From contig CBDBVB010000025.1 in NCBI GenBank assembly GCA_965212545.1, positions 8,433 through 72,432 on the forward strand: a stretch of 64,000 nucleotides of DNA, written 5' to 3'. The position numbers and the translations under genes were made by a program. Below, one piece after another: positions 48,870 to 64,000 of the stretch (the stretch's first letter is position 1; each line of letters starts with the position of its first letter). Below the pieces are notes generated by a model, which saw nothing but the letters and a program-made list of their open reading frames with translations, ran no database searches and was not told the DNA's origin. The DNA is from Inquilinaceae bacterium. GTDB lineage: Bacteria; Pseudomonadota; Alphaproteobacteria; DSM-16000; Inquilinaceae.

Positions 48870-51308
48870 ATGCCACCAAGACTGACATACCCTGGTGTTT
48901 ACGTTGAGGAGCAACCCTCAGGCGTGCGGACGATTACGGGTGTGGCGACATCGACCACGCTCTTCATCGGCATGGCCCGCAAGGGCGAGCTGGGACGGCC
49001 GACGCCGATCCGCGGTGTCGACCAGTTCGAGCAGACTTTCGGCGACGATGTCGGCTATGGCGAACTGGTGCCTCAAGTGCGGCAGTTCTTCCTCAATGGC
49101 GGCGCCGAGGCCATCGTCGCGCGGGTGGCCGGCGCGGGCGTCTCGGCGGCCAATGTCATCCTGCTCAGCGCCGGCGGCACCAACGTCCTGGAGCTCACCG
49201 CGCGGAGCGCCGGCACGCTCGGCCAGGAACTGCGCGCAATCGTCGACTACGACACGCCGACGCCGGAGCTGACCTTCAACATCGAGGTCTTCCGCCGCTC
49301 GGTCGACGGCAACGGCGCGACGGTGATCTCGGAGAATGAGTTCTTCTTCGACCTGTCGATGGACCCGAACAGCCCGCGCTACGCCGTGACCGTGCTGAAC
49401 GACGGCTCGGCGCTCGTGAATGCGGCGCTGCCCGGCGGAGCGCTCGCGCCGACCGATGCCGGCTTCTCGCAGAGCGCGCTCTTGCTGCCGACGGACGACA
49501 CGGCGGCCGAGGGCGTCCTGGACACGATCGTGGGCGCCGGCCATCAGATCACGGTGGCCGTCGACGGTGGCGCTGCGGTGCCCGTGCAGCTTCCGAATTC
49601 GGTGAGCGATATCGGCGACTGGCTGACCGATGCCGGTCTCGCGGTCGAGGCGTCGCTGACCGCCAACGGACAGCCGGGTGGCGTCACCTTCACGCTGGAG
49701 ACCTTCGGCGCGAACCGCGCGCTCAGGCTGACGTCCAACGGCACCAACGGCGGCACCAGCGACAGTGTCGTGGTGACCACGGCGGCTCAGAACGACGGAA
49801 CTGTCGGGCTCCAGCTCGGCGCCGCCGCCGGCGGCATCGAGATCGGTCGCTACTCGCGCTTCCGCCCCGCGCCCTCCGGGTTCACCACCGAGATGCATAT
49901 GCGGGGCGACGCCAGCTTCGGCGAGAATTCGAACTTCTCTCGGCTGATCGACTTCGCCGAGGCTCCGCGGGCGAATCTGAACGCCTGGACGTTCGACGAC
50001 GGCAGCGGCAGCCCGGCCTACACTTCGCCGGCGGCCCCGCCCTTCTCGGGTGCCGGCGCCTCCTTCATCGAGGGCGATGTCAGCGCCACCGGCGAGGGAT
50101 CGCTGCGCAACACCGCCGCCCATCTCGACACGCTGGTCGCCTCCCTGGCGGCCGGCATCGGCGGCGCCTGGACCGTCCGGCGCACCGGCTACCGGATCAC
50201 CATGAGCCCGACCTTCGGCAACAGCAACACCGGCATCTCGGCGGTGCTGACCAGCACCGGCGGATACGACATCGGCGAGGACGACGCCGACGCGGCCGAC
50301 AGCATCGGCGGCATGGCGGCGGTCCCGGGAACGTCCCCATCGATTGCGGCCAATGCCCAGGCCTACTCGCTGGGCGCCAGCGGAACCGGCGACTATCAGA
50401 CACCCGGCTCGCCCGGAAACAACGGCGGCGTGCCGGCGCTGGATGACTATGAGGACATCTTCCACACGGTGGAACAGGAGGTCGATCTCTTCAACCTAAT
50501 GTGCCTGCCGCGTGGCGCCAGCCAGACCGACGCCGACCGGGCGTTGTTGTGGGGCTCGGCGAGTGCCTTCTGCCAGAAAGAAAGAGCCTTCCTGGTCGTC
50601 GACCCGCCGTCGGACTGGCAGACCGTCGACGACGCCGCGGCCGGGATCGCGAACATGCGGCTGGGCACGGTCACCGACCATGCCGGCATCTACTGGTCGC
50701 GGATCAGGGTCGCATCGACCACCACCCCGATCGACCCGGCGGGCACTGTCGCCGGCATCATGGCGCGTACCGACACCAGGCGCGGCGTGTGGAAAGGGCC
50801 GGCCGGACTCGAGGCGTCGATCATCGGCTCGACCGGGCTCGAATACCGGATCTCCGACCCCGAGAACGGCGTCACCAACCCGCAGGCGATCAACACCCTG
50901 CGCCAGTTCGCCGGCGGCGCCGTGATCTGGGGCGCGCGCACCATGGCCGGCTTCGATAACTCGGGCGAGAGCGACTACAGGTACGTCCCGGTCCGCCGCA
51001 CCGCGCTGTTCATCGAGGAAAGCCTCTATCGCGGCCTTCAGTTCGCCGTGTTCGAGCCGAACGACGAGCCGCTCTGGGCGCAGATCCGCCTGGCGGCCGG
51101 CGCCTTCATGCAGAACCTGTTCCGCCAGGGGGCATTCCAGGGCGCCAAGGCTTCGGACGCCTATGAGGTGCGCTGCGACGCGTCCACCACGACGCAGAAC
51201 GACATCAATCTGGGCCGGGTGAACGTGATCGTGGCCTTTGCGCCGCTGCGCCCGGCGGAGTTCGTAGTTTTGACCATCCGGCAACTCGCCGGGCAGGTCC
51301 AGGTGTAA
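48870..51308 (+). CDS. Contractile tail sheath protein (eCIS sheath, Afp2-4/Pvc2-4 equivalent) with a large internal insertion
   Basis: 812 aa. GGAGGA RBS at 48855-48860. The N-terminus MPPRLTYPGVYVEEQPSGVRTITGVATSTTLFIG and the C-terminal blocks DLFNLMCLP, GIMARTDTRRGVWKGPAG, INTLRQFAGGAVIWGARTM and VNVIVAFAPLRPAEFVVLTIRQ fit the phage/eCIS sheath family. Confidence 0.9.
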   Translation: MPPRLTYPGVYVEEQPSGVRTITGVATSTTLFIGMARKGELGRPTPIRGVDQFEQTFGDDVGYGELVPQVRQFFLNGGAEAIVARVAGAGVSAANVILLSAGGTNVLELTARSAGTLGQELRAIVDYDTPTPELTFNIEVFRRSVDGNGATVISENEFFFDLSMDPNSPRYAVTVLNDGSALVNAALPGGALAPTDAGFSQSALLLPTDDTAAEGVLDTIVGAGHQITVAVDGGAAVPVQLPNSVSDIGDWLTDAGLAVEASLTANGQPGGVTFTLETFGANRALRLTSNGTNGGTSDSVVVTTAAQNDGTVGLQLGAAAGGIEIGRYSRFRPAPSGFTTEMHMRGDASFGENSNFSRLIDFAEAPRANLNAWTFDDGSGSPAYTSPAAPPFSGAGASFIEGDVSATGEGSLRNTAAHLDTLVASLAAGIGGAWTVRRTGYRITMSPTFGNSNTGISAVLTSTGGYDIGEDDADAADSIGGMAAVPGTSPSIAANAQAYSLGASGTGDYQTPGSPGNNGGVPALDDYEDIFHTVEQEVDLFNLMCLPRGASQTDADRALLWGSASAFCQKERAFLVVDPPSDWQTVDDAAAGIANMRLGTVTDHAGIYWSRIRVASTTTPIDPAGTVAGIMARTDTRRGVWKGPAGLEASIIGSTGLEYRISDPENGVTNPQAINTLRQFAGGAVIWGARTMAGFDNSGESDYRYVPVRRTALFIEESLYRGLQFAVFEPNDEPLWAQIRLAAGAFMQNLFRQGAFQGAKASDAYEVRCDASTTTQNDINLGRVNVIVAFAPLRPAEFVVLTIRQLAGQVQV

Positions 51309-51323
51309 GGGGAAGACCGGACA

Positions 51324-62880: not shown

Positions 62881-64000
62881 CGCTGTGCCCTTGTGACGGC
62901 CATACGCCGCCGGTCCTGACATCGATCGCTCCGGGACTTGCGCGGTTGCCGCGCCAGATCGGATTGTTCGGGCAGTTCAGAGCCGATCTGCTGGAGCGGG
63001 TTCGGGCCCATCCGGCGCTGGGAAACTGGCGCGCCCGCGACGCCGAGGATTTCGGCCTGATGCTGCTGGAGTTCTGGGCATACGTCTCCGACGTCACCGC
63101 GTTCTATACGTCCGAGCACGCCCAGGACCTGTACCTGCAGACGGCGCGCGACGATCTGGCGCTGCGCCGGCTGGTGGCGTTGATCGACCACGTCCCGCGC
63201 CCCGCGGTGGCCACCGAGGCGGTGCTGGCGGCATTGATGGACGGCACCGACCCGGTCGAGGCGCCGTCGGCTGCCGGGTTCCTGTCCGATGCCATCGCCG
63301 ATACCCCTCCGCAGGTATTCGAACTGTCCGAGCCGGTGATGCTCGACCCGTTGCGCAACGGCTGGACGCTGGTGCCGCCGCGTGACACGACCTACCGCCC
63401 CGACGCGCTGCTGCTGGACCCGGCGACCCGGAACCTGGCCGAGGGCGGGCTGGTCGTGATCGACGCGGGGTCCGGCGCGCGCACGGTGACGACGGTCAAG
63501 ACCTTGGTGAGCGAGGTCGCGCTCGACGGCGCCACCTATCTCCGGCTCGAGGTCGACGATCCCGCACAGCTTCCGGCCGGGCCCCTGCAGGTCAGCGATA
63601 TCAGGCTGTGGTCCTTCGCCCAGACCGCGCCGGTGGCGACGATCACCAATACGACGATGACCATCAACGGGCATTATCCGCAGCTGCGCGCCGGCGATTT
63701 GCTGGTGATCGAAGATACCCGGCTGGACGGGCCACTGGCTCCCGAGGTCCACACTGCGGAATCCGCGGTCCTGGGCAACGGACCCGACATCCCCACCGAC
63801 TCCGTGACCGTGCCAGGCCCGCCGATCACCACGGTCGGGCTCCTGGCGAGCCCCGGCATCGCGGAAGAGAACGCCAGGCTGCATTTCGGCCGGGTCCGGG
63901 CCGGACGGCTGGCGGCGCCGGCGAAGACCCTGGTCACCGGCGACGATCTGACAGCGGTGTTGCCGATCAAGACCCCGGCGCCGCTTCCGGCGGCCGAGGG
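62877..64000 (+). CDS. Second gpJ-like putative baseplate assembly protein (Afp12 slot), 5' part; runs off the right edge
   Basis: I translated it myself and found it open to the window end. It reads MTLCPCDGHTPPVLTSIAPGLARLPRQIGLFGQFRADLLERV...DFGLMLLEFWAYVSDVTAFYTSEHAQDLYLQTARDDLALRRLVALIDHVPRPAVATE. It is not in the ORF track because there is no stop. An ATGA overlap couples it to the upstream gene. Confidence 0.75.
   Translation, partial: MTLCPCDGHTPPVLTSIAPGLARLPRQIGLFGQFRADLLERVRAHPALGNWRARDAEDFGLMLLEFWAYVSDVTAFYTSEHAQDLYLQTARDDLALRRLVALIDHVPRPAVATEAVLAALMDGTDPVEAPSAAGFLSDAIADTPPQVFELSEPVMLDPLRNGWTLVPPRDTTYRPDALLLDPATRNLAEGGLVVIDAGSGARTVTTVKTLVSEVALDGATYLRLEVDDPAQLPAGPLQVSDIRLWSFAQTAPVATITNTTMTINGHYPQLRAGDLLVIEDTRLDGPLAPEVHTAESAVLGNGPDIPTDSVTVPGPPITTVGLLASPGIAEENARLHFGRVRAGRLAAPAKTLVTGDDLTAVLPIKTPAPLPAAE

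Follow-up and report, generated by a model that had tools for sequence, protein, structure and literature searches.

A predicted lineage II contractile injection system operon on a chromosomal contig of an Inquilinaceae bacterium

Does a run of phage-tail-like genes on an alphaproteobacterial chromosome encode an injection machine and, if so, to which lineage does the machine belong and where would it act? We addressed this question for 64,000 nucleotides (nt) of an Inquilinaceae bacterium (assembly GCA_965212545.1, contig CBDBVB010000025.1, positions 8,433 to 72,432 of the forward strand), referred to below as the window. A first-pass annotation had placed at its 3' end a phage-tail-like extracellular contractile injection system (eCIS) with a layout unlike that of Afp and PVC. 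The analysis indicates that positions 48870-64000 hold the first 14 genes of an approximately 18-gene chromosomal operon for a lineage II contractile injection system (CIS) with IIa/IIc-type gene content, and we put the probability of this reading at roughly 0.88.

From 48870 to the end of the window, 14 closely packed open reading frames (ORFs) lie on the plus strand, the last one crossing the window edge. The ORF map and a direct reading of the junctions revealed ATGA overlaps at 52579, 54986, and 62877, TGATG overlaps at 53589 and 57918, a TAATG overlap at 60316, and an 8-nt overlap between ORF6 and ORF7 at 56910; the remaining intergenic gaps measured 1-25 nt, the widest being that from 59072 to 59098. 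The 14 ORFs, their spacing, and every overlap quoted in the first-pass annotation were thereby reproduced exactly. Third-position GC was 0.84-0.90 in 12 of the 14 ORFs (ORF4 and ORF12 fell outside the filter listing) in a window with a background of 66% GC. Homologues of all 14 ORFs, with the order kept, were found by tblastn in independent genomes, and nine of ten operon products tested were identical to predicted proteins of one 84,753-bp NCBI/ENA contig. Because of the third-position GC, the same-order homologues, and the identical deposited proteins, the arrangement represents more than chance. The features are as follows, with protein lengths in amino acids (aa) and profile matches given with their E-values.

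48337 to 48366, plus strand: promoter-like site, TTGACG-18-TATAAT; 11/12 matches in a consensus scan, ~500 nt 5' of the sheath ATG
48870 to 51308, plus strand: ORF1, contractile sheath (Cis2/Afp2-4 type), 812 aa; Phage_sheath_1 2.6e-10, Phage_sheath_1C 5.3e-10
51324 to 51824, plus strand: ORF2, inner tube protein (gp19/Afp1/Cis1 type), 166 aa; Phage_T4_gp19 1.3e-34
51833 to 52582, plus strand: ORF3, T4 gp26/gp51-like baseplate-hub assembly protein (PF12322); homologue profile, AlphaFold2 (AF2) model, BFVD
52579 to 53589, plus strand: ORF4, Pro-rich protein, 336 aa, 21.7% Pro; family-less
53589 to 54989, plus strand: ORF5, tube/sheath terminator cap (Afp16/Pvc16/Cis16, DUF4255), 466 aa; Pvc16_N 6.3e-22
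54986 to 56917, plus strand: ORF6, AAA+ ATPase (Afp15/Cis15 type), 643 aa; AAA 5.2e-29
56910 to 57626, plus strand: ORF7, tube-fold baseplate/tube initiator (CIS_tube, Afp5/Afp7-like), 238 aa; homologue profile match
57637 to 57918, plus strand: ORF8, small conserved baseplate protein, 93 aa; phrog_7145 "baseplate wedge subunit" 5.8e-4
57918 to 59072, plus strand: ORF9, gp27/gpD-like baseplate hub, N-terminal half of a split Afp8/Cis8, 384 aa; family profile
59098 to 59631, plus strand: ORF10, gp5/gpV-type spike, C-terminal half of a split Afp8, 177 aa; Phage_base_V 2.3e-20
59633 to 59941, plus strand: ORF11, PAAR-like spike tip, divergent (Afp10/Cis10 position), 102 aa; profile match
59945 to 60316, plus strand: ORF12, gp25/Afp9/Cis9 baseplate wedge (sheath initiator), 123 aa; GPW_gp25 6.9e-15
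60316 to 62880, plus strand: ORF13, gp6/Baseplate_J-like wedge (Afp11/Cis11a), 854 aa; TIGR02243 7.5e-39
62877 to 64000, plus strand: ORF14, second gp6/Baseplate_J-like wedge (Cis11b-like), cut by the window edge; TIGR02243 2.2e-9

The sheath, DUF4255, and ATPase ORFs match their families, and the profile matches agree with the proposal of a phage-tail-like CIS carrying the DUF4255/Pvc16 plus AAA+ signature. In ORF1, the sheath Pfam domains occupy residues 537-804 and the N-terminal ~500 residues carry no Pfam family; the AF2 model has a predicted local distance difference test score (pLDDT) of 83.7 and is confident over residues ~30-470 (pLDDT >90). The best PDB sequence matches were 9ezm (haloarchaeal Cis2, 1.4e-57) and 8bky (Streptomyces, 2.3e-55), and 9ezm_A was also the top Foldseek match (1.4e-25). 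The best PDB matches of ORF1 (16 by sequence and 50 listed by fold) were CIS or phage tail-sheath chains. Sheaths of solved CIS, at 350-690 aa, are far shorter than this 812-aa protein. A length of ~800 aa is typical of a large clade: the sheath family comprised 842 homologues, and the full-length ones among 120 listed measured ~760-830 aa. The Pvc16_N match of the cap protein covers residues 10-188 and is followed by a C-terminal extension of ~280 aa; no useful PDB sequence match was obtained for this protein. The ATPase has a single C-terminal AAA module (residues 424-549) and a weak WHD match.

The baseplate genes follow. For the hub, a profile built from 67 sequences of an exhaustive HMMER search was required, as a smaller ORF9 alignment had found no PDB match. 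This profile matched the Streptomyces CIS chain 9gtr_q (1.7e-15; deposited as a Gp5/Vgr OB-fold protein), the AlgoCIS (Algoriphagus) chain 7aef_q (1.7e-13), the Salmonella eCIS VgrG 9rce_F (2.3e-12), and the tCIS (Anabaena) chain 7b5h_AJ (All3320; 2.2e-8). ORF9 itself matched VgrG_rel at 2e-5, and 14 of the 67 family members matched Phage_GPD. Because the profile matches the spike chains of four solved CIS and the family contains Phage_GPD members, ORF9 is assigned as the gp27/gpD half, with the gp5-type half encoded separately by ORF10 after a 25-nt gap. The profile of ORF11 weakly matched the phiKZ PAAR tip protein 6p1z_D (E=0.0031), with no match to the Pfam PAAR_motif, and its slot between the spike and gp25 is conserved in the relatives.

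The initiator assignment was reached through a homologue. ORF7 itself is sub-threshold for CIS_tube (E=0.13), and its Enhygromyxa homologue (51% identity) exceeds the Pfam cutoff with 30.2 vs 27 bits, so that the Afp7-type component is recognised transitively. ORF7 also gave a weak profile match to the Salmonella eCIS chain 9rce_H (E=0.0085), which is deposited under the name "peptidoglycan-binding protein". ORF8, whose homologues are kept in four genera, had been labelled a LysM/gpX-like protein. A hidden Markov model (HMM) search gave no LysM or Phage_tail_X match at E<=1 and there was no PDB match, so that this label lacks HMM support; the weak PHROG "baseplate wedge" hit is the only match, and ORF8 may be LysM/gp53-like.

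Two large wedge proteins complete the series. ORF13, an identical 854-aa copy of which has been deposited, scored 133.8 bits against TIGR02243 ("putative baseplate assembly protein"), under the equivalog cutoff of 155.8; its Pfam Baseplate_J match was faint (0.16), and no useful PDB sequence match was found. Residues ~160-310 of ORF13 align over ~130-160 residues, at ~30% identity, with the N-terminal part of the ORF14 homologues at four related loci (L001-L004). ORF14 reaches ~770 aa in relatives, where the full-length Yoonia homologue matched phrog_219 (baseplate wedge, T4-type) at 2.9e-10 and the Cupriavidus homologue matched Baseplate_J at 2.9e-4. A metagenome scan with the ORF13 alignment yielded five loci, one of them long, and a protein search with the partial ORF14 yielded four matches, all on short contigs. 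Taken over the operon, the sheath, gp19 tube, Pvc16 cap, AAA+ ATPase, spike, and gp25 labels of the first-pass annotation were borne out directly by profile matches, and those of the tube initiator, gpD/gp27 hub, PAAR-like tip, and two Baseplate_J/gp6-like proteins through homologues or profiles; the LysM/gpX label was not.

To which lineage does this set of genes belong? Chen et al. 2019 (PMC6899500) distinguished two lineages of eCIS, lineage I (Afp, PVC, MAC) and the larger lineage II. According to the same survey, afp8 is divided into gp27 and gp5 ORFs in IIa, IIb, and IIc, and two copies of afp11 occur in IIa and IIc, the split afp8 and the afp11 copy number serving as subtype criteria; PAAR is absent only in IIb, Afp14 is generally absent, and two or three conserved subtype-specific genes of unknown function are present. 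Superfamily membership was judged on the eight-gene core of that study, and all eight types (Afp1/5, Afp2/3/4, Afp7, Afp8, Afp9, Afp11, Afp15, and Afp16) were found here. The window also contains a split afp8 (ORF9/ORF10) and two afp11 genes (ORF13/ORF14, both TIGR02243), and no ORF matched an Afp14 tape-measure family in Pfam, NCBIfam, or PHROGs. By the content rules of Chen et al. the locus is therefore placed in IIa/IIc. As in the IIa/IIc loci described there, it combines a split afp8, two afp11/Cis11 genes, and conserved subtype-specific genes of unknown function, and neither an Afp14 tape measure nor an Afp6 plug could be recognised; ORF11, with its weak profile match, is a candidate for the PAAR-type gene.

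The closest solved sheath is that of the haloarchaeal clade IIa CIS of Halogeometricum borinquense (PMC11566945, 9EZM). In contrast to that system, the present sheath is ~240 residues longer (812 vs 574 aa), the host is an alphaproteobacterium, the operon is contiguous rather than divided into two subclusters 8.7 kb apart, and no gene for an anchor with six transmembrane (TM) segments was seen. Streptomyces coelicolor CIS-Sc (IId; PMC10066040; 8BKY, 8BL4, 9GTP) is also a lineage II system and its sheath is nearly as close, the similarity to IIa (9ezm) and IId (8bky) being almost equal. The best PDB match of the ORF9 profile is the spike/VgrG-type chain of CIS-Sc, which likewise has no conventional tape measure. 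The two differ in that in IId afp8 is a single contiguous gene and afp11 occurs once (Chen 2019), and in that CIS-Sc has two tube genes (Casu 2023); moreover, CIS-Sc lacks a conventional tail fibre and acts in a cytoplasmic cell-death mode that requires the membrane protein CisA.

The gene order was compared with that of the relatives. A common order of sheath (~800 aa), tube, PF12322 protein, Pro-rich protein, Pvc16 cap, AAA+ ATPase, (cargo), CIS_tube protein, 93-aa protein, gp27-like protein, gp5-like protein, small protein, gp25, and two large wedge proteins was found in Lyngbya confervoides and Enhygromyxa salina, in Yoonia, Rhodobacterales, and Sphingomonas metagenome-assembled genomes, and on the complete replicon pMTS1 of Cupriavidus sp. 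P-10. The nearest homologues and the 66% GC would suggest a marine, Rhodobacterales/Paracoccaceae-like source for the window. The mid-operon pair of cap and ATPase genes thus recurs in five unrelated genera. In the Afp and PVC operons, the cap and ATPase genes lie at the 3' end. Afp/PVC (Ia; 6RAO, 6J0N) have the tube, sheath, initiator, spike, PAAR, gp25, gp6-like wedge, AAA+, and Pvc16-type cap in common with the present locus; they differ in having three sheath and two tube paralogues, a fused VgrG, Afp12, Afp13, and Afp14, and sheaths of only ~350-450 aa. The locus does therefore depart from Afp/PVC, as had been proposed, but the layout is not novel: it follows the lineage II subtype criteria of Chen et al., and the same order occurs in five genera. 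Of the three layout differences listed in the first-pass annotation, two are published properties of lineage II, and the mid-operon position of the cap and ATPase rests on the gene order of the relatives. The idea of a novel layout was accordingly rejected; the locus is a further case of a catalogued lineage II class, and its layout, marker domains, and fibre type have already been catalogued.

Two genes between the tube and the cap deserve separate treatment. Homologues of ORF3 (31-37% identity) exceed the PF12322 T4_baseplate cutoff (29.5-30 vs 24.5 bits), and its model (pLDDT 95.5, predicted template-modelling score 0.89) matches predicted T4-like gp26/gp51 hub-assembly proteins in BFVD at 6e-8, so that the likeness to T4 gp26/gp51 is seen both in the family and in the predicted structure. 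No PDB neighbour was found by structure (best E=0.77) and none useful by sequence, and the modelled fold is apparently without an experimentally solved counterpart. Cysteines C83, C86, C173, and C176 form two CxxC pairs that are invariant in 64 sequences, and a zinc ribbon is probable. The deposited ORF3 protein (P0138) has 247 aa, two residues fewer than the 249 aa called here, and the true start is therefore probably the GTG at 51839.

For ORF4, Pfam, NCBIfam, and PHROGs gave no family match. Comparison with Yoonia, Sphingomonas, Lyngbya, Enhygromyxa, and Cupriavidus, in which the protein measures 235-345 aa, showed conserved motifs at both termini around a centre that varies in length. The gene occupies the tape-measure position of Mu/P2-type tail modules without showing homology to a tape measure. 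From this position ORF4 is a candidate length or lumen protein. Three independent published reports, including Chen 2019 (PMC6899500), did not find an Afp14 homologue in lineage II CIS, and it is conceivable, though we consider it rather unlikely, that ORF4 is the missing length-determining tube-lumen protein ("tape measure") of this lineage; it would then act as an extended, non-helical ruler, helped by ORF3 as a gp26/gp51-like zinc-ribbon factor.

What lies beyond the window edge was approached through the relatives. In the Yoonia, Rhodobacterales, and Sphingomonas loci, ORF14 is followed on the same strand by an ~800-aa protein with faint Tail_P2_I similarity and then by a beta-helix protein of 1,205-1,247 aa; an N-terminal DUF6519 reached a score in just two of its orthologues, those of Sphingomonas and Cupriavidus. 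Next comes a protein with two to four PASTA repeats (L002 18377-20017; L001 10818-12473; L003 18433-19500), which follows the fibre gene only in the Rhodobacterales and Sphingomonas relatives; Cupriavidus has the Tail_P2_I-like and fibre genes and no PASTA gene. The last protein of this series is an eCIS_core (DUF4157) protein (1e-29 to 1e-32), DUF4157/eCIS_core being an established eCIS toxin marker (PMC8213781). DUF6519 was defined in 2026 as eBAP5, one of the five domains that anchor eCIS tail fibres to the baseplate; it accompanies Tail_P2_I adaptors and the absence of Afp12 (PMC12923769). The relatives carry the DUF6519 fibre with its beta-helix directly 3' of the faint Tail_P2_I-like gene and no recognised Afp12 homologue, which fits the published "eBAP3/5 + Tail_P2_I" architecture (PMC12923769). 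Unlike in the published eBAP5 loci, the fibre here is inferred from Yoonia, Sphingomonas, Rhodobacterales, and Cupriavidus and would lie outside the window, and Rhodobacterales and Sphingomonas add the PASTA protein. By analogy, the 3' end of the present operon would encode a Tail_P2_I-like adaptor, a DUF6519 fibre, a PASTA protein, and an eCIS_core effector-type protein.

The PASTA protein of the relatives has no signal peptide or TM segment, and an Ala-rich N-terminal stretch, judged by eye, is possibly a coiled coil. It may be a peptidoglycan-directed receptor-binding element; if this is true, it would point to an antibacterial eCIS aimed at exposed cell wall. Our literature search found no published link between PASTA domains and contractile injection systems.

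A variable cargo slot lies between the AAA+ ATPase and CIS_tube genes. In Lyngbya it contains two eCIS_core proteins, one with OmpA (L009 18648-21829), and in Cupriavidus a 2,231-aa protein with two eCIS_core domains and Ntox14 (L011 14410-21105). In the window this slot (56910-56917) is empty because the ATPase and initiator genes overlap by 8 nt. A hidden eCIS_core effector elsewhere in the 64 kb was rejected, since tblastn with four eCIS_core proteins gave a best E of 0.02.

Upstream of the sheath gene, the promoter-like site at 48337-48366 sits in an AT-rich island (48310-48375) amid 65-70% GC, is sigma-70-like and near-consensus, and is a candidate operon promoter; it would give a leader of ~500 nt before the sheath gene, whose ATG is preceded by GGAGG. 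The island matched no Rfam family, and no regulator was recognised immediately 5' of the operon in the window. Regulators 5' of related loci vary, with a sigma-54 activator in Cupriavidus (L011 4554-6089) and, at the Enhygromyxa locus (L010 8296-9051), a GerE/LuxR-type protein together with a small eCIS_core protein.

How would such a machine work? Reasoning from the protein families, the hub, spike, and wedges would assemble first, aided by the gp26/51-like factor ORF3; the tube and sheath would then polymerise from the gp25/initiator platform, and the Pvc16 cap would terminate both. The AAA+ ATPase may help assembly or cargo loading. On a trigger at the baseplate, the sheath would contract, pushing the tube and spike together with the cargo across a target membrane. 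Because of the fibre and effector content of the relatives, and because the operon encodes no clear TM protein, release and action as a free extracellular particle is the most likely mode, a preference that we hold with some caution. A Kyte-Doolittle scan of ORF1-14 and of the relatives' ORF14-17 detected no clear TM anchor and only single borderline windows in the sheath and ORF13.

Several observations weigh against our interpretation of the locus. The subtype follows from gene-content rules, and the assignments of ORF7, ORF8, ORF11, ORF13, and ORF14 are based on sub-threshold or transitive matches. The window stops within ORF14, so that the fibre, PASTA protein, and effector are taken from genomes with ~55-87% protein identity; it holds no cargo gene, and the slot that bears toxins in Lyngbya and Cupriavidus is empty here. 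Expression of the operon and assembly of the particle are predicted. No lysis or release genes were seen, and there is no lysis cassette in the window. Furthermore, the structurally characterised lineage II systems have all been cell-associated so far, which argues against presuming an extracellular mode, and a membrane anchor could be encoded elsewhere in the genome.

These last points lead to the strongest alternative, namely that the same machine acts in association with the cell, either membrane-anchored, like the haloarchaeal IIa "archaeal T6SS", or in the cytoplasm, in stress-induced death, like the IId systems of Streptomyces and Roseiflexus. The closest solved sheath belongs to the membrane-bound H. 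borinquense system and the second-closest to the cytoplasmic Streptomyces CIS, the Anabaena CIS is thylakoid-anchored, and the absence of a lysis cassette from the window is in line with such a mode. The literature holds that the mode of action is not reliably predictable from sequence (PMC12998442). The label "extracellular" was consequently overstated in the first-pass annotation. In contrast, the operon products include no clear TM anchor, whereas the 6-TM protein Hbor_38620 and CisA are needed in those systems, and the DUF6519/eBAP5 beta-helix fibre and eCIS_core effectors of the relatives are catalogued as target-binding eCIS features. A cell-associated mode is thus a serious possibility, to which we give less credence than to a free particle.

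That the locus represents a tail module from a prophage or R-type tailocin is very improbable, even though its structural folds are all phage-derived. The gene order, from sheath, tube, chaperone-like gene, and tape-measure position to hub, spike, gp25, Baseplate_J, Tail_P2_I-like protein, and fibre, is collinear with that of Mu/P2-type myophage tails. However, a Pvc16_N cap and AAA+ pair is embedded in the module, and the cap protein had no match among 50,697 phage records. Among the top-listed matches, the sheath was at most 33% identical to phage sheaths over at most 40% of its length, and no phage match spanned at least 80% of the query. Profile scans of 34 ORFs spread over the upstream 48 kb showed that all of these are cellular housekeeping genes, including an Opp-type ABC transporter, a methyltransferase, pta/ackA, RecG, Mfd, DsbA, holB, MetRS, PBP5, RlpA, and MltB. 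As had been claimed earlier, no head (capsid), portal, terminase, integrase, or lysis gene was present among them. Neck and packaging genes of the Mu/P2 type are likewise missing, and at the loci of the relatives the fibre and eCIS_core effectors come last, with unrelated cellular genes and no head genes beyond them. Surveys of eCIS exclude pyocins by means of Afp16-type genes (PMC8213781). With the Pvc16 and AAA+ pair present and the upstream genes cellular, the prophage or tailocin explanation is largely refuted.

A canonical type VI secretion system (T6SS, i-iii), which has tube, sheath, gp25, VgrG-like, and PAAR-like folds in common with the locus, is refuted on gene content and may be set aside almost with certainty, because the sheath is a single phage-type protein rather than TssB/TssC, because none of TssB/C, TssJLM, TssK, TssF/G, TssA, and ClpV turned up in a scan of ~48 window ORFs (in agreement with the earlier statement on TssB/C, TssJLM, and ClpV), and because the locus contains genes of the Afp11 (TIGR02243/gp6-like) and Afp16/Pvc16 types, which according to Chen 2019 (PMC6899500) have not been observed in classical T6SS.

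Some further features of the window were recorded. A 210-aa ORF at 4308-4940 on the plus strand, ~44 kb 5' of the operon, matched Peptidase_C58 (YopT-type cysteine protease) at 2.7e-9; the product could be effector-like. A type III polyketide synthase gene (chalcone/stilbene synthase-like; 28041-29171, plus strand) adjoins a gene for a Crp/Fnr-type regulator (29741-30466, plus strand) where the GC content of the window is at its lowest (0.59 at 30-32 kb). The 883-aa ORF called at 44806-47457 on the plus strand is artefactual, owing to an in-frame start further upstream; the apparent real genes there encode a permease (44846-45685, in another frame) and a fused double ABC ATPase starting near 45.7 kb. 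The start of the 384-aa "methyltransferase" ORF probably lies after 47457. The only RNA family detected in the window by an Rfam scan was a tRNA-Ser(TGA) at 16738-16827 on the plus strand.

As a discovery, the locus is incremental. It adds a well-preserved chromosomal lineage II CIS to a class that is abundant in genomes and has very few studied members, and no proteobacterial lineage II system was found among the characterised or solved CIS in the literature searched. The clade to which it belongs spans Alpha- and Betaproteobacteria, Cyanobacteria, Myxococcota, and Verrucomicrobiota, and has a compact, conserved parts list consisting of one ~800-aa sheath, one tube, the gp26/51-like factor, the Pro-rich protein, the DUF6519 fibre, and a variable cargo slot. 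It is therefore a reasonable candidate for studies of length control, cargo loading, and target choice in lineage II machines.

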